A stretch of DNA of 64,000 nucleotides from Vicinamibacterales bacterium (GTDB taxonomy: Bacteria > Acidobacteriota > Vicinamibacteria > Vicinamibacterales > UBA8438), in the NCBI GenBank assembly GCA_965247955.1, contig OZ252042.1:608802-672801 (forward strand), read 5' to 3'. Positions 7,223 to 39,901 of this stretch are shown here, piece by piece. A program made the translations under genes and the position numbers. The notes below the pieces were generated by a model, which worked only from the letters and a program-made list of their open reading frames with translations, did no database searches and had not been told where the DNA came from. How positions within the stretch are numbered: the first letter of the stretch is position 1; each line of letters opens with the position of its first letter.

Positions 7223-7552
7223 CTATAAACTCTGCGACGTATCCTGTTCAGTGCGTCGAAAGAGCTCGGCGATCTCGCGTTCAGTGGCAGCCAGTCGACT
7301 ACCGATGTGCCACATATACCCAAACGCTAAGATCCAAATAATTGAGTAGGCAGCTACCAGAAACGGCGCGGCTGGCAACCTATCCTCTTGCGTTAGTTCG
7401 TCGATCGGCACAAACTCTTCCTGTGCCGGTTGCACCTGCACGCTTTCCTCTATCGCAGTCATGGTCAACGCGGCATGTGGTATCAGCGTCGAAAAAACAA
7501 CCAGAGTGACAACAACGCCAACCCGCCAACGCAAGATCGATAGTCTCACCAT
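7223..7552 (-). CDS. ccmD: CcmD-like heme exporter subunit with an extra N-terminal TM/signal segment
   Basis: It follows ccmC, with GAGG 5 nt before the ATG. The C-terminal part PFLVAAYSIIWILAFGYMWHIGSRLAATEREIAEL resembles CcmD (TM helix plus a short cytoplasmic tail). Confidence 0.55.
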   Translation of the reverse strand: MVRLSILRWRVGVVVTLVVFSTLIPHAALTMTAIEESVQVQPAQEEFVPIDELTQEDRLPAAPFLVAAYSIIWILAFGYMWHIGSRLAATEREIAELFRRTEQDTSQSL

Positions 7553-7567
7553 GTTTGCCTCGCTACC

Positions 7568-8230
7568 TTAATACTCTTCAAGACTCAAATACAGCTGTTC
7601 GAGGGTTGCACGTTGTTCTTCGAGCCGTCGACGCACCCAAAGCAGAGCGAAGAACAGCATTAAATACGCCCCCACACACCACCAGAACGCTCCTCCCATT
7701 TCTAGGGGTAGCGTTGGAATGACCGTTGTCTGCGGGTGAAGGGTTCGCCACACATCTACCGAGATATAGACGAACGGGACATTGACCATTCCAAAGATGG
7801 CCAGACCTGCCGCCATCCGCTCTGAACCTGGACCACCGTATCCACGAAGAAGCAAATACGTCAGAAACGTTAATTCGAGGATGAGAGCAAGAGTGGTCCG
7901 AGCATCCCACGGCCACCACACCCCCCACGACACTCTCGCCCAGAGCGGTCCAGTGGACAGCCCCATCAGTCCGAACAAGACAGCGAGCTCAGCAGACGCC
8001 ACAGCAAGCCGATCGGCAGCCGGCTTCTCCCTGAACAGATAGATCCCACTGGAGATTCCGCAAATGAAGACCGCAAGAAACATCATGAACCATGACGGAA
8101 CATGAAAATAAAAGATCTTCTGTACGAGTCCCATCGTTGACTCATAGGGCGTGAGCGCTACCAGCAACGGCGCCAGACCAAACATGACGGCGCCCCCGAC
8201 GAGCAGCCCTCGAAAAATCAGCTGATTCAT
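7568..8230 (-). CDS. ccmC: heme exporter/heme lyase protein CcmC
   Basis: It is a polytopic membrane protein with the Trp-rich heme-handling motif WARVSWGVWWPWDARTT. It sits in the ccmABC context. Confidence 0.9.
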   Translation of the reverse strand: MNQLIFRGLLVGGAVMFGLAPLLVALTPYESTMGLVQKIFYFHVPSWFMMFLAVFICGISSGIYLFREKPAADRLAVASAELAVLFGLMGLSTGPLWARVSWGVWWPWDARTTLALILELTFLTYLLLRGYGGPGSERMAAGLAIFGMVNVPFVYISVDVWRTLHPQTTVIPTLPLEMGGAFWWCVGAYLMLFFALLWVRRRLEEQRATLEQLYLSLEEY

Positions 8231-8271: not shown

Positions 8272-9000
8272 TCATTCTGCCATGAGCGGTTCGAATGTCC
8301 ATAGGGCCAACGTAACAAAAACGACATCAAAAAACACGAGCACAGTGACCCAGAACCGCGCCATGTCGAGATTTGGTTCTACCTGGATAAGCGCTCCCGT
8401 TCCACTTATCCCAGCGATCATAACGGGCACCGTCACAGGATATAGCAACACTGGGAGTAAACCGGCACGACTCCTGGTTCGCACAAGCATCGCCGCGAAC
8501 AGTGTCCCGACAGCTGAGAATCCCACGGTACCAGTAACGAGCAGCAACGTCATGATCAGCGAATACTCGAACCACGGCACCCCGAACATGAGCGTGATCC
8601 AAAAGACAACAATTAGCTCTACGACTGCCATCAATAGAATAATGCCGATGACTTTTCCAACGAAGATCGCAGATCGTTCTACGGGCGCCAGCATGAGACT
8701 ACGTAGCGCATCGTACTGCCGTTCCCGCTCGAACGCCCGACCGATGGCGAGCGTGCCTGAAAATGCAATCGTCACCCAGAGGATGCCAGCTGACGCGCCT
8801 TCTATCGGTTGTCCCCCGCGTACAAATGCAAACGCGAAAATCAGAACACACGACGCGGCGAATAGAAGCGTCGTGTAGAGCATCTCTCGGCTCCGAGACT
8901 CTACGCGTAAATCCTTACGCATGACAAGCCAGGCGATTCTGAAGAATGCTCGCATTAGCGTCTTGACCGTGACACCGCTCGAGTGGAAGGCACTTCGCAC
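8272..9000 (-). CDS. ccmB: heme exporter permease CcmB
   Basis: It is a six-TM protein between ccmA and ccmC, with a FERERQYDALRSL..APV region as in CcmB. The start is uncertain, either the GTG at 9000 or the ATG at 8955. Confidence 0.85.
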   Translation of the reverse strand: MRSAFHSSGVTVKTLMRAFFRIAWLVMRKDLRVESRSREMLYTTLLFAASCVLIFAFAFVRGGQPIEGASAGILWVTIAFSGTLAIGRAFERERQYDALRSLMLAPVERSAIFVGKVIGIILLMAVVELIVVFWITLMFGVPWFEYSLIMTLLLVTGTVGFSAVGTLFAAMLVRTRSRAGLLPVLLYPVTVPVMIAGISGTGALIQVEPNLDMARFWVTVLVFFDVVFVTLALWTFEPLMAE

Positions 9001-9028: not shown

Positions 9029-9754
9029 TCATGTCGAAGCCAATCGTTGCCGATAGCGTTCCCTGAGAGACGTTCCTGAAGCGGCCAACTCGACGATTCG
9101 TCCATCCAGCAACATCACGGCGCGATCGATAAGCCCGTCTACGAAGTCGAGGTCATGGGTCGCTAAGAGCACGATACGACCATCGCGTTTAAGCTTAAAC
9201 AGCCGCTCGGTTAGGTTCTGGCTCGAGGCTTCGTCGAGTCCAGCGAATGGCTCATCGAGCAGTACCAGCCGTGGGTCGTGCAATAAGGTGCGTTCGAGTG
9301 CCAGCCGCTGGCGCATTCCGCGCGAGAAACTCTGGACCTGGTCGTCACCACGTGTTTCGAGCCCCGCTAGGTTCAACGCCTCTCCGGCGCGGCGCGGTAC
9401 ATCATTGAGACCGTACAACCTCGCAAAGAATTCTAGGTTCTCGCGTGCGGTGAGCTCCGGATAGAGCTGCGGCTCGTGTGACAGGAAGCCGATCTGCGTG
9501 CGCAACAGTAGCCCACCGCCGACCGGATTAAGATCGCCGTATCGAACGAATCCTGACGACGGGTTAACGAGCGTCGCCAACACACCCAATAAGGTTGATT
9601 TCCCGGAACCATTCGGACCAAGCAACCCGACGATTTCACTAGAGCTCAAGTGGAGGGATACCTTGCGGAGTGCTCGTCGCCGGCCGTAGTGACGGGAAAG
9701 ATCAGAAACGGTTACCTCTTGGAAATCGCAGGCTTGTTCAGTGGTGGGCGACAT
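9029..9754 (-). CDS. ccmA: heme exporter ATP-binding protein CcmA
   Basis: It has Walker A GPNGSGKST, signature FSRGMRQR and Walker B LVLLDEP. The track ORF starts at a TTG at 9766, but I prefer the ATG at 9754. Confidence 0.9.
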   Translation of the reverse strand: MSPTTEQACDFQEVTVSDLSRHYGRRRALRKVSLHLSSSEIVGLLGPNGSGKSTLLGVLATLVNPSSGFVRYGDLNPVGGGLLLRTQIGFLSHEPQLYPELTARENLEFFARLYGLNDVPRRAGEALNLAGLETRGDDQVQSFSRGMRQRLALERTLLHDPRLVLLDEPFAGLDEASSQNLTERLFKLKRDGRIVLLATHDLDFVDGLIDRAVMLLDGRIVELAASGTSLRERYRQRLAST

Positions 9755-9782
9755 TGTTCGGCACAAACGTTATGTTATTACC

Positions 9783-11138
9783 CTATGCGCCAGTACCGGG
9801 TGATCCGGTGATCGGAGTGGATTTACGAATGGATCCCAATGAACTCAGCACGGCCGGCACCGGTTCTTTGTCCCGCTCTCGGTAGATCAGCTCGAGCGCA
9901 GCAAACAACTCACGCTGACGAGTCTCATGCTTGGTAGCACCGATCTTTCCGGTTTCTCGCTGCTTCTCGATCCTAACTAGGTCAGCAAGAAGCTTTTCCT
10001 TGCGAGCCTCGAGCGACTGACGGCGATCCGAGGTCTTATGAGTCTTTGCTGACGCAGCCGCGCCCCATGCGCCGACCGTCAGGATGACCATCGCCAGAGC
10101 CAATGTAAGGTTGATTGGCACCCGACTATGATGCGGCAACCCGGTTAATTCAAACGTGAATGTGCTACCTGCCACCACGCGTGGTCCAGCTGCAAAGATG
10201 TAGGTCGTGTCGTCCAGGTTATCCTCCATCCGTCGGGTAATAAGATCCGATGTCACGTCCATCGTCCCCCATTTCTGCACCATTAACAGAAATGCCTCGA
10301 GGTCAGCCGGTACTCGTTGGGACACTGTAACCGTCCCTGTGTTGTACGGCAGGATATACGCCACACGAAGCGGGGTCACCCCTAGTTGAAAAGGACCAGG
10401 CAGCACCAACTGTAGGCCGTCGACCATCGTCCGTGGTGACGAGTCCTGAAGAACACTAACTGAAACGGTGCCGTGTGGCATGTTAAACATGATCGGCTCA
10501 TGAGGCTCGACCGGCGTGTCGCCCGTGTTGACGACGTCAAAGATGTAGTAAACCTCAACCGTCTCCTCACCCAATTCGACAATGATCCGCGAGTTGCTGC
10601 CGAACGTAACCAGGCCAGACTTCGCGGGAACAGCAGGCATCAATGAGTCGCTGGCAATCGCGCCGACCAGCATCACTCGAACGCCACCGCGGCCAGGAAT
10701 GCTGAAACGTTGCGACTCGAGCCGCTGTCCGTTGAGCTCAGTGACTGCATACACCTGGGCACCTGGAGTCAGCGTCAAAAACGTAGCGCGGCCATCGGCA
10801 TCGGTATTCGCCGTCACGACATAGTCGCCTTGGTGCAGATCGACCGGCTGGTCCGGAACGTTATTGTCTAGCGAACCGATGACCACGCGGACCGTGATCG
10901 TGCCGTCGGCGAGCTCAGGACTTGGCAGCGGCAAACCAGACATTTGCCGTGGATCAGGTTGGGCAACGACAGCCACCTCGCAAAGGATGACCAACAAAGA
11001 CGACAACAATACGCGTAGGCTGAGGTTTAAAAATTTTCGAGTGCATGGATCCAAGGTTCGCGGATGCGGTTCTGGCACCATTGGTTCAATAAAGGTCCAT
11101 CGCTCAATCACCAGTGCCTCCTCTAACCCTGCAACCAT
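9783..11138 (-). CDS. membrane-anchored protein: signal peptide, carboxypeptidase-regulatory-like beta-sandwich domain(s), one TM helix, cytoplasmic coiled-coil tail
   Basis: The ATG at 11138 is preceded by AGAGG. The segment TITVRVV...VDLHQGDYVVTANTDADGRATFLTLTPG is CarboxypepD_reg-like. A TM helix (INLTLALAMVILTVGAWGAAA) is followed by LEARKEKLLADLVRIEKQRETGKI. The gene is embedded in the ccm operon. Confidence 0.7.
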   Translation of the reverse strand: MVAGLEEALVIERWTFIEPMVPEPHPRTLDPCTRKFLNLSLRVLLSSLLVILCEVAVVAQPDPRQMSGLPLPSPELADGTITVRVVIGSLDNNVPDQPVDLHQGDYVVTANTDADGRATFLTLTPGAQVYAVTELNGQRLESQRFSIPGRGGVRVMLVGAIASDSLMPAVPAKSGLVTFGSNSRIIVELGEETVEVYYIFDVVNTGDTPVEPHEPIMFNMPHGTVSVSVLQDSSPRTMVDGLQLVLPGPFQLGVTPLRVAYILPYNTGTVTVSQRVPADLEAFLLMVQKWGTMDVTSDLITRRMEDNLDDTTYIFAAGPRVVAGSTFTFELTGLPHHSRVPINLTLALAMVILTVGAWGAAASAKTHKTSDRRQSLEARKEKLLADLVRIEKQRETGKIGATKHETRQRELFAALELIYRERDKEPVPAVLSSLGSIRKSTPITGSPGTGA

Positions 11139-11159: not shown

Positions 11160-11750
11160 CTAAGTAAGTTCGTTCCCACATTTCTTGCAAAACCTCGCGT
11201 CGCATTCGTTGCTCGTACCGCATCCGTCGCACAAAGGGCGCATCGCTTCCAGACGTTCAACCGGCTCCTGGCCCTGCGGAGGTGGCGTAGCTCCTCGCTC
11301 CAACAGCTCACTCAAGTCACGCGCGATAATTTCACGATACCCAGACTTATTAAAATCGAGCTGACGCATCAATTTAAGAGCCCTCGAGCGGAGTCGTCCC
11401 CCCATCTCCTCAAAATCAGCGTCTGAGACCTTTCCCATCGCGTGATCGAACTCGAGCTCTTTGATCGAACGGAGCACAAGCGTCTTCTCACGTTCGAGCG
11501 CCGCACGCGTTCGCCCACCGATCATCTTGGTCCGATTCTGGAACTCGCGGGTGGTGAGCGGCCAGATCATGCAGTAGAATGCGAAGCCAACTCCTCCAGC
11601 GGCACCGATGGCGGCTACGAGCAAAACAAGTGCGGCAGGGTCGCCTGGGCGAACAACCACGACGCCGACAGTAGCGGCCACGAGACCGACCAGAACGAAC
11701 AAATGCCAGGGACGGAAGGTGATTTCAGTCGAGGTTGCGGAGCTCATCAT
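11160..11750 (-). CDS. two-TM membrane protein with a CcmI-N-like coiled coil and a C-terminal zinc ribbon
   Basis: Two TM helices are followed by LEREKTLVLRSIKELEFDHAMGKVSDADFEEM and a C-terminal CDGCG...CDARFCKKCG (CxxC...CxxC). The start (ATG at 11750 or 11747) overlaps the 3' end of ccmF. Confidence 0.65.
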   Translation of the reverse strand: MMSSATSTEITFRPWHLFVLVGLVAATVGVVVVRPGDPAALVLLVAAIGAAGGVGFAFYCMIWPLTTREFQNRTKMIGGRTRAALEREKTLVLRSIKELEFDHAMGKVSDADFEEMGGRLRSRALKLMRQLDFNKSGYREIIARDLSELLERGATPPPQGQEPVERLEAMRPLCDGCGTSNECDARFCKKCGNELT

Positions 11751-14280
11751 CCAAGCGGGCCTCAAGCTTCGCGTCCACTGGGTCCACTAAAGACGTCGCC
11801 TGGAGGCCCTCGGTTTCGTCACGGCGCGACCAACGGACGGCAATCACGCCAATTGCGATCAAAAAGCTTCCACCCACCAGATAGGGGAAGAGCCACGCCA
11901 GGCGGTTGAAGCCTTCGTCGAGCGGAGCGCCAAGAGGCTCCTGGCTCCCAAATGTGTTAATGAAATACCTTAGGATCTGATTTTTCGTCTTACCCTGCGC
12001 GATTTGCTCCTTAAGCTGACCGCGCATATACGCGGCACCGGCCGAGACAACCTCACGCCGACCGTCCGAGGTTGTTCTCCATGTCGGAGGCGCGGAACAT
12101 CGGCAGTCTGCCAATGTGTAGTGAGGACAGGTCCCGCAGACACAGACCAGCTCCCGTTGTAACTCACGTTCCAGCTCTGAGTCGACCGCGTACGACTCTG
12201 GAGTCGCTAGAACATTTCGGTCCTCAAGTTCCTGCGCACGCGCCGACGTGGCCAACCCACCGAGCGCCAGCGTCAGAAGAAAGACGGACGTCGTCGCCGT
12301 GCGTACGGCCTCTGGTGTCTTGGCCTTTAGGAACACGAAGGACTTTTCCGGCAGGAGCGCGATGCCAGTGCCGAACGCCAGAAAGGCAAAGCCGATCCAC
12401 ATCCAGTTCAGCAATGGGTTTACTGTAACCTGGAAGCTGGCAGATTGATCGCCAAGCTCGTACGCCGCCAGTACGACGTAGAGATCCTCGGACAGCGTCC
12501 GCCGGATGGCAACCTCCGTGGTCGGCTCGGTTTCGTGTTTCCGGTAAAACCAGCGACCCGGATAAAGTTGGCCGACCTGCTCCCCGTCCTTGAAGGCGGT
12601 CAAGTGCGCTGTGACCATCTGCTTGCGGCCGTCGTCAGTCTCGCTCAACCGGTCGTAGCGTACGGCAAAACGGCCTACCTCGACCTGTTCCCCGATGCCG
12701 AGCAGCACCTGTTCGCTCTGCTTGTAGCCGGAACCGGCAAAGCCGAGGAACATCAGAACAATTCCTGCGTGCACAATGTAGCCACCGTAGCTGTGACGGG
12801 AGCGCATGACGAGACCGATCATTGCGGTCACGACATCCGTTCCTGTGGCGCTGCGTCGCACGTTAGCACCGCGGATGAACTCTTGTCCGAGTGTTCCAGC
12901 AACGAACGCACACAGCGCGACCGCGATCCCGGAGACCCAAATGCGAAAACCAAGCGTGTACAGCAGTGCCGCACTAGTAAGAGCCAGCGAAACAGGCCAC
13001 ATGAATTGGTATCGTAAATTCGAGAGAGTCGACTTCCGCCAAGCAAGCAGCGGCCCGACCCCGGTCAGAAACAGTAACGTTAACCCAATCGGGATCATCC
13101 ATTTATTGAAGAATGGGGGGCCCACCGTGATCCGCTGCCCCGTTACCAACTCACTTAATGTCGGGAACATCGTGGCGAACAGAATAAAGAACGCTGTAAA
13201 CAGTAGGATCCAGTTGTTCAGCAAAAACGCCGCCTCACGCGATGCCCACGATTCGAGGTCGTTTCGCCCGCGGAGTAATGGCAGACGATAGATGACCCAG
13301 CCGAAGCTGAACACCAACAGCGCCACCATGAAGATACTGAACATCATCGCTAACTCGGGGTCCTCACCGAAGGCATGTACCGACTGCACGACGCCAGAGC
13401 GGGTCATGAATGTGCCGAAAATCGTCAAGAAGAACGTCAGTATGACAAGCGTGATGTTCCAAACCCGAAGCATGTTCCGCCGCTCTTGCACCATCACCGA
13501 GTGCAGGAATGCGGTGGCAGTAAACCACGGCAATGCGCCAGCATTTTCAACTGGATCCCATCCCCATACACCTCCCCACCCGAGCTCCTCGTAGGCCCAA
13601 ATCATTCCGAGCGTCAACCCAAGCGATAAGAAGAACCATGAGAACATCGTCCAGCGACGAACAGCGCGCAACCACGAGTCGTCGAGGTATCCGGTAATGA
13701 GGGCCGCCATGCCGAACGCGAACGGGATGGTCATCCCGACGAACCCGGTGTAAAGCGAAGGCGGGTGGATTGCCATGTACGGATTCTGGAGCAATGGATT
13801 AAGGCCGCGGCCGTCTGTCGGCGCCTGCATAAGGTACGTCTCGAACGGATTCTTGTGAACGATCATCAAGAAGAGAAAGAACATCTGCACAACTGCGATC
13901 ACTGCAACTACATACGGAATCAGTTCACGCTGGCGCTCGCGGTTGGTCTGGACAGCAATCGCGCCGAAGACCGACAACAGGAACACCCAGAACATGATCG
14001 ATCCGTCAAGACCACCCCAATACGACGTCAACTTGTAAAACAGTGGCTGAACCGAGTCAGAGTACCGGTCGACGTAGCGTATTGTGTAATCGTAGGTGAC
14101 GAAGGCATGAACGATGATCGCCGAGGCGAGCGTCATGAGTGCCGTGACGAGATAGAACGCGCCGATGCCACTCTCCGTCATTCGAGATGACTGGCGTTTT
14201 GCACCGGCCACACACGCAGCGGCGGCGTAGGCACAGGCGACGAACGCTGCAAGCAGAGAAAAAGTGCCGAGTGTGGCCAT
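11725..14280 (-). CDS. ccmF: cytochrome c heme lyase CcmF fused to a CcmH-like thiol-redox module
   Basis: The first ~640 aa are a polytopic CcmF with the WGGVWGWDPVENA motif. The C-terminal ~200 aa align to CcmH (ELVCVCGTCPHYTLADC...QGKTKNQILRYFINTFG...TM helix). The ATG at 14280 is preferred over the track TTG at 14283. Confidence 0.9.
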   Translation of the reverse strand: MATLGTFSLLAAFVACAYAAAACVAGAKRQSSRMTESGIGAFYLVTALMTLASAIIVHAFVTYDYTIRYVDRYSDSVQPLFYKLTSYWGGLDGSIMFWVFLLSVFGAIAVQTNRERQRELIPYVVAVIAVVQMFFLFLMIVHKNPFETYLMQAPTDGRGLNPLLQNPYMAIHPPSLYTGFVGMTIPFAFGMAALITGYLDDSWLRAVRRWTMFSWFFLSLGLTLGMIWAYEELGWGGVWGWDPVENAGALPWFTATAFLHSVMVQERRNMLRVWNITLVILTFFLTIFGTFMTRSGVVQSVHAFGEDPELAMMFSIFMVALLVFSFGWVIYRLPLLRGRNDLESWASREAAFLLNNWILLFTAFFILFATMFPTLSELVTGQRITVGPPFFNKWMIPIGLTLLFLTGVGPLLAWRKSTLSNLRYQFMWPVSLALTSAALLYTLGFRIWVSGIAVALCAFVAGTLGQEFIRGANVRRSATGTDVVTAMIGLVMRSRHSYGGYIVHAGIVLMFLGFAGSGYKQSEQVLLGIGEQVEVGRFAVRYDRLSETDDGRKQMVTAHLTAFKDGEQVGQLYPGRWFYRKHETEPTTEVAIRRTLSEDLYVVLAAYELGDQSASFQVTVNPLLNWMWIGFAFLAFGTGIALLPEKSFVFLKAKTPEAVRTATTSVFLLTLALGGLATSARAQELEDRNVLATPESYAVDSELERELQRELVCVCGTCPHYTLADCRCSAPPTWRTTSDGRREVVSAGAAYMRGQLKEQIAQGKTKNQILRYFINTFGSQEPLGAPLDEGFNRLAWLFPYLVGGSFLIAIGVIAVRWSRRDETEGLQATSLVDPVDAKLEARLDDELRNLD

Positions 14281-14430
14281 CAAAGGAACCTGTCGCGCCG
14301 GGCTTCAACCCCGACACCGGCCGTTGGGCGCGATCGACGGATGGTTAATGGCAGCCGGTCGGCGCACCGGCCGGCCTTGAAGTCTACAAACTATCGTGCG
14401 GGGTCTCAGCCCCCGTAACGAGATCCAAGC

Positions 14431-14913
14431 TTAGTGGCTGGCTACGCTGGTCTGGCCTTCACCAGAATTCGTGCCACCCTCGGCAACACTCCCCAGACTT
14501 GGCTTCGGTTCATACTTCGACGGGCACTTTGCCATGATCCCGTTGGCACCCACGATGAAGCGGTCTCCTTTGAAACTTCCAGAGACCACGACTTCGGCGT
14601 GGTTATCAAAGGTGTCTGGAACGATCCCGTTATACTCTGCGTGCACCACGTAGTGATGATTCTCGACGCTGTCGCGAATCTCAAAGCGCCAATCCAGGCT
14701 CCTCGGATGCCTCAAGACGTTGGCCGCATAGCCATGCACTTGCAGCCGCTTGCCCTGCCAAACTTGCGGCTCGACCATCACTTCGTCCACCCTCTTGTAA
14801 TACTGGGTGCCGTCCTGCATAGTCGCCCACATCAGGCAGACAAACGCTCCCGTCAAGACCACGGTCGTCAGCAGAACTTTAAGCGCTTTGTTTGGCACGG
14901 GAGAACCTCTCAC
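14431..14913 (-). CDS. ccmE: heme chaperone CcmE, CxxxY variant
   Basis: It has an N-terminal TM anchor plus an OB-fold region (RLQVHGY..., IVPDTFDNHAEVVVSG). The C-terminal IMAKCPSKYEP aligns to the canonical VLAKHDENYTP. Cys130 is the TGC codon at 14524-14526. Confidence 0.9.
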   Translation of the reverse strand: MRGSPVPNKALKVLLTTVVLTGAFVCLMWATMQDGTQYYKRVDEVMVEPQVWQGKRLQVHGYAANVLRHPRSLDWRFEIRDSVENHHYVVHAEYNGIVPDTFDNHAEVVVSGSFKGDRFIVGANGIMAKCPSKYEPKPSLGSVAEGGTNSGEGQTSVASH

Positions 14914-14943: not shown

Positions 14944-15519
14944 CTAGCCCTCTGCAAGCTCCCGCAGGAGCCGATCAATAAGCGAAACCGGCAAACCAAC
15001 GACATTCGTATAAGACCCTTCGACTCGTGTTACGAAACGAGACGCTATATCCTGGACTCCGTAAGCCCCGGCCTTATCTAACGGCTCCCCCGTACGAACA
15101 TACCAGTCGATCTCCACATCGCTTAGTTGAGTCAGTGTGACACGTGTCCGCTCGACCGCGCTCACGTGAGCACAGTCAAGGCGAAGGGCCACACCGGTCA
15201 AGACCTCGTGAGTTCGTCCCGCTAGCCGATGTAGCATCGCACCGGCCTCCGCTGGGTCACGGGGTTTCCCGAGTAGGGTATTGTCGATCGTCACGATGGT
15301 ATCAGCCCCGAGCAAGACTCGCCCCTGGTACGTCACTGCCACTGCGTCTACCTTTGCCCCGGCGAGGCGAACCACATAACGTTCAGGGGTTTCACCGTCT
15401 AGCACGCGCTCGTCGATATTCGCCGGCACGACGTCGAATGCATAACCCGCACGTGTCAGTAACTCCGCACGTCGTGGCGACGCTGAAGCGAGAACGAGTC
15501 GAAGTTCGGAGTGATACAC
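14944..15519 (-). CDS. maf: Maf-like nucleoside triphosphate pyrophosphatase
   Basis: LVLASASPRRAELL, GADT.V, KAGAYGIQ-like (KAGAYGVQD) motifs; about 190 aa. Confidence 0.9.
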   Translation of the reverse strand: MYHSELRLVLASASPRRAELLTRAGYAFDVVPANIDERVLDGETPERYVVRLAGAKVDAVAVTYQGRVLLGADTIVTIDNTLLGKPRDPAEAGAMLHRLAGRTHEVLTGVALRLDCAHVSAVERTRVTLTQLSDVEIDWYVRTGEPLDKAGAYGVQDIASRFVTRVEGSYTNVVGLPVSLIDRLLRELAEG

Positions 15520-37249: not shown

Positions 37250-37435
37250 GCGGCTGACAGCTCTGTTTGTCCGCTAATCCCTTGCCAGGCACGACCGTGC
37301 GGTGGCTCTGCCCGGAGTAGCTGTTACGATCGGCCTCGAGTGAATTTACCTCTTCCGCATGGCTAGCTCCTTGTCTAAGATGAGCGAAATGACGTTGGCA
37401 GTTTGAGGTTGACTTATGTTTTTGAGAAACGTCTG

Positions 37436-37861
37436 ATGGAGCACGTTGTGACCACGGCACCTCTCCTCTTTCTCTCGGCATCCGGTTTCGTAATTGCAAC
37501 ATACTTCACGTCTGTTGCGTACCGATGGATTCGGGCCGACGAAAAGTGGATTCCAGCTTTCTGCCGCATGGAGGAACAAACCTGCGCATCGATCGTCTTC
37601 ACCCCTCAGGCTCGTGTTTTCGGACTTCCAAACTCGGTGCTCGGCATAGTGTTCTATGCAGCCATCCTCGGCAGCGCGCCTGTGGGGTTCCTTGATCGCC
37701 AATTAATCTGGGTGCTCTTCCTGGGAGCAAGTGTCGTCTCGGTAGCGCTTGGAGTTTATCTGGCGCACTCGCTCTTATTCGTCATTAGAGTTCCCTGTAA
37801 GCTGTGTTTCGCGGCACACGGAATTAACACGGCGATCTTGTTGCTCCTACTGTTGCAATAG
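37436..37861 (+). CDS. vitamin K epoxide reductase (VKOR) family membrane protein
   Basis: It has four TM helices, loop Cys residues (FCRMEEQTCASIV), an S..FG.PNS.LG motif and the CxxC motif (CKLC) in the last helix region. Confidence 0.75.
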   Translation: MEHVVTTAPLLFLSASGFVIATYFTSVAYRWIRADEKWIPAFCRMEEQTCASIVFTPQARVFGLPNSVLGIVFYAAILGSAPVGFLDRQLIWVLFLGASVVSVALGVYLAHSLLFVIRVPCKLCFAAHGINTAILLLLLLQ

Positions 37862-38014
37862 CGGAACGGCTACTCGCTCCAGTAGGACACTGTGTGTTTA
37901 AGTTTCTTGATACCAGAGGTCTGGCATATCTCACGCAGCTTGATGTGAGACGGTTTGGCGCTGATGGTATAGTGTTAAGGTTTTCATAATCCTTCACCGG
38001 CAGACGAGGTATCG

Positions 38015-38497
38015 ATGACGGGACGACGGAACTTTCAGGGAAGTAATCTGATTATTGGAACACTTGGGCTGATACTTACTGTCACCGTGGTCGCCATCGA
38101 CGATGGGAACAACTCGGTACTGGCGGCGACGTTGCAGTCTGGCACGTCAATCTGGGATGGTGTGTACACCGAAGAACAGGCCGCACGGGGTCAGAAGGCA
38201 TACGTGCGGGACTGCGCGCAGTGTCACCTTGAGGATCTGCTCGGTGACGGGATCGCGACGGCGCTGATCGGGGACCCTTTCACCTTCCGTTGGAGTGATC
38301 TCTCAGTCGGTGACATGTTCGTGGTGATCCGTACTACGATGCCAGAAGGCGCGGCTGGCAGCCTGAGCCGGCGGAGGTACTTGGACATAATCAGCTATCT
38401 CTTGCAGGCCAACGGGTTTCCGCCTGGGGATACAGCACTCCCCAGGCGTGCGAGTGCCCTCGAACAGATCATCATTCAGATAGAGCCGCCGCAGTAG
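38015..38497 (+). CDS. membrane-anchored monoheme c-type cytochrome
   Basis: It has a signal anchor and a single CxxCH motif (CAQCH) in a GQKAY...CAQCH context. Confidence 0.8.
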   Translation: MTGRRNFQGSNLIIGTLGLILTVTVVAIDDGNNSVLAATLQSGTSIWDGVYTEEQAARGQKAYVRDCAQCHLEDLLGDGIATALIGDPFTFRWSDLSVGDMFVVIRTTMPEGAAGSLSRRRYLDIISYLLQANGFPPGDTALPRRASALEQIIIQIEPPQ

Positions 38498-38667
38498 ACA
38501 CGAACGACGTGCGCTCGCTGCTTACCCGGATCGGTGCCCAAGTGGGTTAGAATTCTAGGCGAATCGTGATACCAATTGGTTCGCCACCCCTATGGTGTCG
38601 CCCCAGCTCCGGCTGATACTCAAGTTCGAGGGCGTGATATCCTGACGTGAGATAGGAAGGTCCCATA

Positions 38668-38859
38668 ATGAAATTTGATGTTTTGGCGTTCCTCGGCCCA
38701 CTCGGTTTGCCGGAGCTGGTAATCATCTTCTTCATCCTGCTACTTATTTTTGGAGCGAAGCGACTCTCGGGATTGGGAAAAGGCCTGGGTCAGGCCATCC
38801 GAGGCTTCAAGGATGAAGTGCAGGACGAGAACGACCACCATCCCACCAAGCCCGAATAG
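38668..38859 (+). CDS. tatA: twin-arginine translocase subunit TatA/E
   Basis: LPELVIIFFILLLIFGAKRLSGLGKGLGQAIRGFK is a typical TatA TM helix plus amphipathic helix. GGAAGG lies upstream of the ATG. Confidence 0.9.
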   Translation: MKFDVLAFLGPLGLPELVIIFFILLLIFGAKRLSGLGKGLGQAIRGFKDEVQDENDHHPTKPE

Positions 38860-38968: not shown

Positions 38969-39499
38969 CTACTGTCTCGCCACCCCTAACTCTGTTAGAT
39001 GGGCCACTAGATCTTGACCAGCTGTCGAGGCGCTAACCTGTTTGTCGACCCGAAGAACCTTGCCATCAGGCCCGATGATGTAAGTCCACCGGAACGGCCG
39101 CTGACGTTCCTCATTGACGACGCCGTAGGCCAGCGCGACGTCCTTTTCTGGATTGCTCAGGATTGGAAACTCAGCACCGAGAGATTCCGCGAATTCTTTG
39201 TTCGTTTGGGGATCATCGACACTCACCATGAAGTAGGCGATATCGAACTGACTCAACTGGTCGCTGGACTCACTCAGCGACTTGCATTCGGCCGTTCAAC
39301 CACCAGTGAACGCCTTCGGGAACCAGGCGAGAATGACTGTCTTACCTGAGTAGTCAGACAGCCGATGAATCTTGCCGTCGCTCCCAGGCAACTCGAACGC
39401 CGGCGCCTGATCTCCAGTGCCGAGTTCTTGTGCCTCTGACCCGCCGGTACCAATAGCGGCCAGGGCAAACACTACGGTCAGGATAAAGTATCCTCCCAT
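38969..39499 (-). CDS. secreted peroxiredoxin (AhpC/TSA, BCP/PrxQ-like) with an in-frame TGA at the peroxidatic Cys position; probable selenocysteine protein (Sec68)
   Basis: Track ORFs 39296..39898 and 38969..39256 share one frame and are interrupted only by the TGA at 39296-39298. The joined sequence ...GKTVILAWFPKAFTGG[U]TAECKSL...FMVSVDD...FPILSNPEKDVALAYGV... is a complete Prx fold, with the TGA on the PxxxTxxC cysteine. The ATG at 39499 has GGAGGA upstream and begins a signal peptide. A hairpin lies 14 nt after the TGA. Confidence 0.7.
39260..39281 (-). promoter_or_regulatory. candidate bacterial SECIS hairpin
   Basis: On the coding strand a perfect 7-bp stem GTCGCTG/CAGCGAC with the loop AGUGAGUC starts 14 nt after the UGA. 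Additional flanking pairing (CGAA..CAA with TTG..TTCG) extends it. Confidence 0.55.
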
Positions 39500-39520
39500 A
39501 ATCCTCCACTCCAGGCTTCG

Positions 39521-39544
39521 GCACGAACGGACCGCCGTTCGTGC
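39521..39544. repeat. perfect 10-bp inverted repeat (GCACGAACGG accg CCGTTCGTGC) in the peroxiredoxin leader
   Basis: Read directly from the sequence. It lies 22-45 nt upstream of the ATG at 39499 on the minus strand. Confidence 0.8.
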
Positions 39545-39901
39545 TCTGGTTGCAGACTCTAGACTCCTGCCAAGCCAGGATACTCTATCTAACACATCCA
39601 CACAAAACTCTTTGATTGAGTGAAATCTGCCTGGCCCGCTTGACAGCAGACCGACCATCCGTCGAGCATCGGATGGGAATATGGCCGCACGAGACCACCA
39701 GCGGAGATCTGGCCGTGATTGCCATGGGCCACTGAACCCTCGAGTTGAAAGAGAACGACGACAAAATCTTGTCGGTTCGATCCGGACAAGACCGCGAAGT
39801 GGTGCAGCGGTCTTAACCAGCGCCTGCCTAGCAAGCTCTTCAATCGAAACCGTTGAAATCCATCGGCGGCCTGCCACGCACCGTCCATACCCTGACATCC
39901 G

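Follow-up and report, generated by a model that had tools for sequence, protein, structure and literature searches.

The gene ccmE in the studied window, by which we mean the whole 64-kb stretch of DNA analysed, very probably encodes a working Cys-type heme chaperone (CcmE*, System I*) that forms part of a complete System I operon of the Vicinamibacteria. This reading is based on the family and the fold of the product, the position of the Cys residue and its conservation, the complete syntenic operon, the motifs of CcmF and CcmC, and the presence of a CcmD of the alternative family (CcmD_alt). It covers what is encoded in the 64-kb window; covalent heme binding by this protein and delivery of the heme to CcmF are putative.

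Organisation of the ccm operon

The genes are found on the minus strand in the order maf-ccmE-ccmF::ccmH-p201-p451-ccmA-ccmB-ccmC-ccmD(alt). Their positions in the window, and the basis of each assignment, are:

14944-15519, minus strand: maf, adjoining ccmE
14431-14913, minus strand: ccmE, very probable Cys-type heme chaperone (PF03100, phmmer against PDB, AlphaFold and Foldseek)
12304-14283, minus strand: CcmF core, heme lyase, residues 1 to about 660 of the 852-aa ORF 11725-14283 (Pfam)
11725-12231, minus strand: CcmH-like module on CcmF, residues about 685-852 (Pfam, profile, Foldseek)
11160-11750, minus strand: p201, conserved membrane protein (same position in about 65 loci)
9783-11138, minus strand: p451, conserved protein of 451 aa (syntenic in about 65 loci)
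9029-9766, minus strand: ccmA, ABC ATPase (Pfam ABC_tran, 1.3e-28; synteny)
8272-9000, minus strand: ccmB (Pfam CcmB, 6e-30)
7568-8230, minus strand: ccmC, with FYFHVP, WGVWWPWDAR (WWD) and RTLHPQ (Pfam Cytochrom_C_asm, 1.3e-21)
7223-7552, minus strand: ccmD, alternative family, 109 aa (NCBIfam TIGR04391 CcmD_alt_fam, 39.1 bits, cutoff 24)

The order ccmE, ccmF, ..., ccmA, ccmB, ccmC, ccmD-like had been proposed in the initial annotation, and the ORFs, Pfam and NCBIfam confirm it. Against TIGR01191 the CcmC protein scores 6.3e-28, which is under the curated cutoff. When the operon proteins were searched by tblastn against 80 loci, the same order was found in about 65; in these related loci, as here, CcmE is encoded together with ccmABCD and ccmF. 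Housekeeping synteny around the operon (recA, maf, aroK, aroA) is also seen across the class. Judged by this synteny, an operon with this gene order is standard for the class Vicinamibacteria and no peculiarity of one genome.

Concerning further maturation components, Pfam detected no CcmG, CcdA, DsbD, second CcmE or System II in 48 of the 61 largest ORFs of the 64-kb window. Among the CxxC motifs listed by a scan of the window's 61 largest ORFs, none has the form WCxxC. The terminator and promoter scan around ccmE gave no signal above the shuffle expectation.

The CcmE gene and its product

The ORF 14431-14913 is present on the minus strand and has 160 aa counted from the GTG at 14913. Its start is ambiguous: the longest ORF begins at GTG 14913, and the public gene calls begin at GTG 14898, with GAGAGG upstream, giving a protein of 155 aa (MPNKALK...) which has an exact match in public collections. 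The residue numbers shift by five between the two starts, so that Cys130 (GTG 14913) is the same residue as Cys125 (GTG 14898). The Pfam model CcmE (PF03100) matches the ORF over profile positions 2-99 of 99, with a score of 64.4 bits (cutoff 24.6; E 1.3e-17). The NCBIfam equivalog models for CcmE and CcmF give scores under their curated cutoffs, so both proteins are divergent from their proteobacterial counterparts. The regions of the CcmE protein are:

14809-14889, minus strand: N-terminal membrane-anchor helix, residues 9-35 (model helix, pLDDT about 90; hydrophobic LKVLLTTVVLTGAFVCLMW)
14530-14802, minus strand: periplasmic OB-fold β-barrel, residues 38-128 (model strands; Foldseek)
14512-14526, minus strand: CPSKY motif, from Cys130 (TGC 14524-14526) to Tyr134 (TAT 14512-14514) (sequence, phmmer alignment, conservation)

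The AlphaFold model, for which 41 family members were the input, has a mean pLDDT of 79.5. Its barrel strands comprise residues 38-41, 56-68, 74-80, 89-95, 107-115 and 118-128. In a Foldseek search against PDB the top four matches of the model are 8CE8_E (1.1e-06), 1SR3, 2KCT and 1LM0, all of which are CcmE structures. According to the model, the ccmE product is a CcmE-family protein, consisting of a membrane anchor, a periplasmic OB-fold barrel and a tail which bears the motif. CPSKY is located straight after the last β-strand (ending at residue 128). Model confidence drops after residue 130, and the tail from this residue is presumably flexible.

Position of Cys130 at the heme-binding site

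Read on the reverse strand, atg-gca-aag-TGC-ccg-tcg-aag-tat encodes M127 A128 K129 C130 P131 S132 K133 Y134; the earlier assignment of TGC 14524-14526 to Cys130 is right, in both codon and numbering, for the start at GTG 14913. With phmmer against all PDB chains, the significant matches are four CcmE sequences (five PDB entries). The segment AKCPSKYEP aligns to AKHDENYTP of E. coli (1SR3, 8CE8_E) and to AKHDENYMP of Shewanella (1J6Q), and in the phmmer columns Cys130 falls on E. coli His130 and Tyr134 on Tyr134. MAKCP aligns to MTKCP of the D. vulgaris CcmE 2KCT (E 3e-04), where the residue is Cys127. By alignment, therefore, Cys130 occupies the heme-binding position of CcmE. The proposal of the initial annotation, a CcmE with Cys replacing the heme-binding His, is borne out by Pfam, the PDB alignments, the fold and the family alignment; the comparison with known CcmE sequences which had been suggested as a check places the Cys inside, and not outside, the heme-binding position.

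Conservation of the Cys-type motif

AKCPSKY is present in 119 of the 120 closest homologues listed from a collection of 5.8 billion proteins; the exception reads AKSPSKY. The motif is also present in 80/80 loci returned by a genome scan, which used six patterns, two of them containing the Cys motif, and which is thereby biased against His-type copies. By their titles, the scan loci belong mostly to Vicinamibacterales, Vicinamibacteraceae or Vicinamibacteria; several are named only Acidobacteria or Acidobacteriota, and two names are apparently mis-binned. Since two of the six patterns include the Cys motif, an unbiased check was needed. HMMER over 1.84 billion cluster representatives (50% identity) found 1114 relatives; among the best 150 of these, 93 cover the site, and Cys is found in 93/93 (mostly as KCPSKY) and His in none. 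In the 41-sequence alignment, which has a mean column identity of 40%, the stretch I126-M-A-K-C-P-S-K-Y-E135 is invariant. The Cys codon is TGC in 60 of the loci and TGT in 20, and an invariant Cys with a synonymous codon change is expected when selection acts on the amino acid. On these counts, the Cys-type CcmE is the fixed, normal form across the class Vicinamibacteria, a large and abundant soil lineage.

A second, canonical HxxxY ccmE was not seen within the window or the locus flanks. Several related genomes do contain second ccmE copies; all of these carry AKCPSKY and are found beside a truncated ccmF with PadR and permease genes. Such second loci are L008, L013, L014, L021, L024, L026 and L035, in which ccmF is truncated or tail-less. 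In most cases the second-copy ccmF is followed by a PadR-like regulator and a large protein of ~905 aa, FtsX/MacB-like by eye. L026 differs, its order being ccmE-ccmF(no CcmH)-ccmC-ccmD.

CcmF and its fused CcmH module

The CcmF core is recognised by the Pfam models Cytochrom_C_asm (3.1e-35) and CcmF_C (1.2e-51). It matches CcmF of Thermus thermophilus (6ZMQ) at 3.7e-91 and contains the WGWDPVEN motif. The His residues in maiHPP, aflHS, qsvHAF and yivHAG match, by eye, four His of the Thermus CcmF.

The C-terminal part of the same ORF has the layout of a periplasmic Cys-rich domain, a C-terminal TM helix and a cytoplasmic tail. Pfam CcmH matches it with 27 bits, just above the cutoff of 25, and the match of the single sequence to P. 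aeruginosa CcmH is weak (E 0.68). All 120 listed homologues of the tail carry PF03918, and the source names them CcmH/NrfF. When a profile of 45 tail homologues was compared with PDB, the two best matches were E. coli CcmH (2KW0, 5.9e-08) and the P. aeruginosa protein (2HL7, 2.9e-07). The model of the module has a pLDDT of 85, and 2KW0 is once more the closest PDB fold, with a weak match (Foldseek E 0.14). The Cys residues are arranged as follows:

12097-12144, minus strand: Cys-rich motif C714-V-C716-G-T-C719-x7-C727-R-C729 (sequence, HMM alignment)

In the HMM alignment C716xxC719 (CgtC) is placed on the CPKC redox pair of 2KW0 and 2HL7. Judged by the model match and the conserved CxxC, the fused module belongs to the CcmH/NrfF family PF03918. 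That the operon retains a CcmH-like module, as first annotated, holds on the Pfam score, the profile match to 2KW0 and the PF03918 of the 120 listed homologues. The tail is in one ORF with CcmF in 67/69 loci. Two apparent cases of an unfused Cys-rich CcmH were set aside as uninformative: L082 has the same synteny and a fragmented ccmF, probably owing to frameshifts, and L081 adjoins a transposase.

Of the 80 listed homologues matching the multi-Cys pattern, 77 have CxCxxCx7CxC. In the tail alignment C30, C32, C35 and C45 are invariant and C43 is nearly so. One Vicinamibacteria subgroup has CMCGSPGC, that is CxxxxC instead of CxxC, and further listed CcmH homologues read IVCTCGACGHxxxAECRKDPC. 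Compared with CcmH/NrfF proteins (2KW0, 2HL7), the module shares PF03918, the CxxC aligned on CPKC with a TM helix after it, and a conserved helical segment RxQLxxxIxxGKxxxxIxxYxxxxYG. It differs in its fusion to the C-terminus of CcmF, in an insertion of about 20 residues (a predicted β-hairpin) and in three additional conserved Cys, so that the module has five conserved Cys whereas canonical CcmH has LRCxxC only.

The conserved operon proteins p201 and p451

Two further proteins are encoded between ccmF::ccmH and ccmA. The first, p201, has 196 aa, and an identical protein is found in public collections; two TM helices are predicted in it, one helical segment (consensus EREKTLVLRSIKELEFDRAMGKVS..DF) is strongly conserved, and there is a zinc ribbon at the C-terminus. 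The second, p451, combines a CarboxypepD_reg-like Ig domain and a further domain with a signal or anchor; it also has a TM helix at its C-terminal end and a helix on the cytoplasmic side. CarboxypepD_reg matches 16 of 21 members of the p451 family (best E 3e-05). Beyond zinc ribbons, no family match of p201 was found in Pfam, in NCBIfam, with Pfam on 21-22 members or with a profile against PDB sequences. For p451, NCBIfam and Pfam, the latter also on 21-22 members, gave no family match beyond the CarboxypepD_reg-like domain, and no PDB sequence matched. CcmI had been suspected for p201 and p451 on account of the helical motif after the TM segments; this identity was dropped, since the Pfam, NCBIfam and profile searches gave only the zinc-ribbon and CarboxypepD_reg-like matches. 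The fixed place of the two genes between ccmF::H and ccmA suggests that their products take part in maturation.

Comparison with known CcmE systems

Cys-type CcmE reportedly occurs in archaea and Desulfovibrio without CcmH or CcmG, as Allen in 2006 and Goddard in 2010 are said to have described it. It is only against this description of the variant that the combination of Cys-CcmE and CcmH in the window can be called a hybrid arrangement, as the initial annotation had done. The term is not upheld more generally: the co-occurrence was already reported by Stevens et al. 2011 (PMC3601427), whose survey makes the 'hybrid' a documented state of the variant, and it is standard across the class. In that survey variant CcmE is found in Delta-proteobacteria, Chloroflexi and Firmicutes, and the prevailing motif is CPSKY, present in 25 of the 36 bacterial genomes that have variant CcmE. 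CcmH is present in about one third of the bacteria with variant CcmE, and missing CcmH is not characteristic of the variant (PMC3601427). By its motif CPSKY, the present protein is a Cys-type CcmE (CcmE*, 'System I*') as described in PMC3601427; with a CcmH domain fused to CcmF, the operon lies outside the strict System I* definition of 'no CcmH' (Allen 2006/Goddard 2010). Our literature searches for Acidobacteria with CcmE/CcmF/CcmH, for a CcmF-CcmH fusion and for the extra Cys found no mention of them.

The Desulfovibrio CcmE (System I*, 2KCT) resembles the present protein in the OB-fold, the Cys at the His130 position and the K-C-P context, and the order ccmE-ccmF-...-ccmABCD is also alike. 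The operon here differs in belonging to another phylum, in its two extra conserved genes and in low sequence similarity; moreover, the studied Desulfovibrio system is without CcmH and CcmG (PMC3601427), whereas here CcmH is fused to CcmF. The archaeal CcmE (Methanosarcina acetivorans, C120; PMC9084895) shares the CxxxY motif. Archaeal systems are without CcmD, CcmH and CcmI (PMC9084895), whereas the operon here has the alternative-family CcmD and CcmH. With the E. coli CcmE (1SR3/8CE8 chain E) the protein has in common the anchor, the β-barrel, the tail from residue 130, Tyr134 and the partners CcmABCD and CcmF/H, and it differs in having Cys for His and CPSKY for HDENY. The E. coli variant H130C binds heme and cannot hand it on to CcmFH (PMC9084895), so the partners in the present operon must be adapted to Cys.

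Redox genes elsewhere in the window

The only thiol-redox genes seen in the window are a VKOR homologue and a peroxiredoxin. The former is part of a plus-strand cluster (37403-38859) which adjoins the latter:

37403-37861, plus strand: VKOR homologue (7.8e-20)
38015-38497, plus strand: mono-heme cytochrome c with CAQCH (Cytochrome_CBB3 match at threshold)
38668-38859, plus strand: TatA-like small ORF, judged by eye only
38969-39898, minus strand: peroxiredoxin (Bcp/AhpE-like), with a signal-like N-terminus and an in-frame TGA at 39296-39298

The TGA stands at the place of the expected peroxidatic Cys (AWFPKAFTGG-TGA-TAEC). When the stop is read through, the alignment of the protein with Prx structures (2YWN, 2.2e-15; M. 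tuberculosis AhpE 1XVW, 1.2e-14) extends across it. A hairpin, GUCGCUG-AGUGAGUC-CAGCGAC, begins 17 nt downstream of the UGA (-22.2 kcal/mol, z -1.98). On this sequence evidence, 38969-39898 likely encodes a selenocysteine peroxiredoxin. The window yielded no tRNA-Sec, and neither selA nor selB was seen among the scanned ORFs. The ccm operon has a candidate substrate in the CAQCH cytochrome c.

Alternative explanations

The mode of heme binding bears on the first alternative, a CcmE-family chaperone which would carry heme non-covalently, with Cys130 and Tyr134 as ligands and without a thioether. We regard this as unlikely. For D. vulgaris CcmE, non-covalent binding of ferric heme by way of C127 was reported in vitro (Aramini 2012, cited in PMC3884852), and thioethers are chemically hard to reverse (PMC3601427). 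The D. vulgaris result, however, was obtained with a truncated soluble construct without CcmABC, whereas CcmE of D. desulfuricans carried covalent heme when produced together with its own Ccm proteins (PMC3601427). Goddard 2010 (via PMC3601427) found covalent heme on Cys-CcmE and a Desulfovibrio operon that works in E. coli. In Methanosarcina acetivorans C120 is necessary for attaching the heme, and the heme-stained holo-CcmE depends on it (2022 eLife paper, PMC9084895). The covalent and non-covalent results conflict between the two Desulfovibrio proteins, as pointed out in a 2013 review (PMC3884852). An origin of the Cys in a sequencing or assembly error, or in a decaying gene, has practically no probability: hundreds of independent assemblies share the motif unchanged, the ORF and the operon are intact, and the reading is refuted by the 119/120 homologues, the 80/80 loci and the synonymous codons TGC and TGT.

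The other alternatives concern the system as a whole. The fusion of CcmF and CcmH in 67/69 loci, the conserved multi-Cys motif, the constant place of p201 and p451, which belong to no known family, between ccmF::H and ccmA, and the lack of CcmG, CcdA or DsbD in the 48 scanned of the 61 largest window ORFs could point to a distinct System I sub-type, in which the extra Cys or a bound metal aid heme release from the thioether or apocytochrome reduction, replacing CcmG, CcdA or CcmI. The canonical CxxC is kept and aligned to CPKC, however, and ordinary CcmH function explains the domain; the genes for CcmG and CcdA often lie in another part of a genome, synteny alone is no proof that p201 and p451 act in maturation, and nothing links the extra Cys to the chemistry of CcmE. 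Such a sub-type is therefore quite unlikely. An equally slim chance is given to the wider proposal that the acidobacterial ccm operon is a separate System I architecture, in which Cys-CcmE would have co-evolved with the fused five-Cys CcmH, p201 (cytoplasmic zinc ribbon) and p451 (periplasmic Ig-like domain), these supplying the chemistry or reducing power of CcmG, CcdA and CcmI and maybe heme release from the thioether. Very improbable is an Nrf-like paralogous system that would be dedicated to special heme motifs, with a His-type CcmE or System II elsewhere doing the general work. CcmF does score about equally on NrfE models and on the general CcmF/NrfE model (TIGR03145 2.6e-118, TIGR00353 1.6e-122), and a second ccmE copy exists in some related genomes; but every NrfE model score is under the cutoff, no nrfA-like gene is adjacent, the operon comes with a full ccmABCD of its own and keeps its housekeeping neighbours (recA, maf, aroK, aroA) throughout the class, and the second copies too carry AKCPSKY beside a truncated ccmF.

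Proposed mechanism and significance

For the preferred reading, a Cys-type chaperone within a complete System I operon, a sequence of steps can be proposed by analogy with homologues. As in the experiments on Desulfovibrio and Methanosarcina CcmE, CcmC would present heme on its WWD domain and the thiol of Cys130 would add to a heme vinyl, the product presumably being a thioether; Tyr134, like Tyr134 in E. coli, is expected to be a ligand of the iron. Given the non-covalent binding by D. vulgaris CcmE in vitro (Aramini 2012, PMC3884852), the covalent step is not universal knowledge. ATP hydrolysis by CcmAB, together with CcmD, would release holo-CcmE, which would then dock on the WWD domain of CcmF, where the heme would be released and attached to the CxxCH of the apocytochrome. 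The fused CcmH domain would hold or reduce the apocytochromes.

The chemical question posed by Cys-type CcmE is how a stable thioether between chaperone and heme gets undone, and to this the locus brings no answer of a new kind. The taxa which the 2011 survey lists do not include Vicinamibacteria by name, and these are a new taxonomic member of the group with Cys-type CcmE. The less explored parts of the locus, namely p201/p451 and the Cys-rich fused CcmH, could serve as test cases for the role of CcmH alongside Cys-CcmE; they are leads rather than results.
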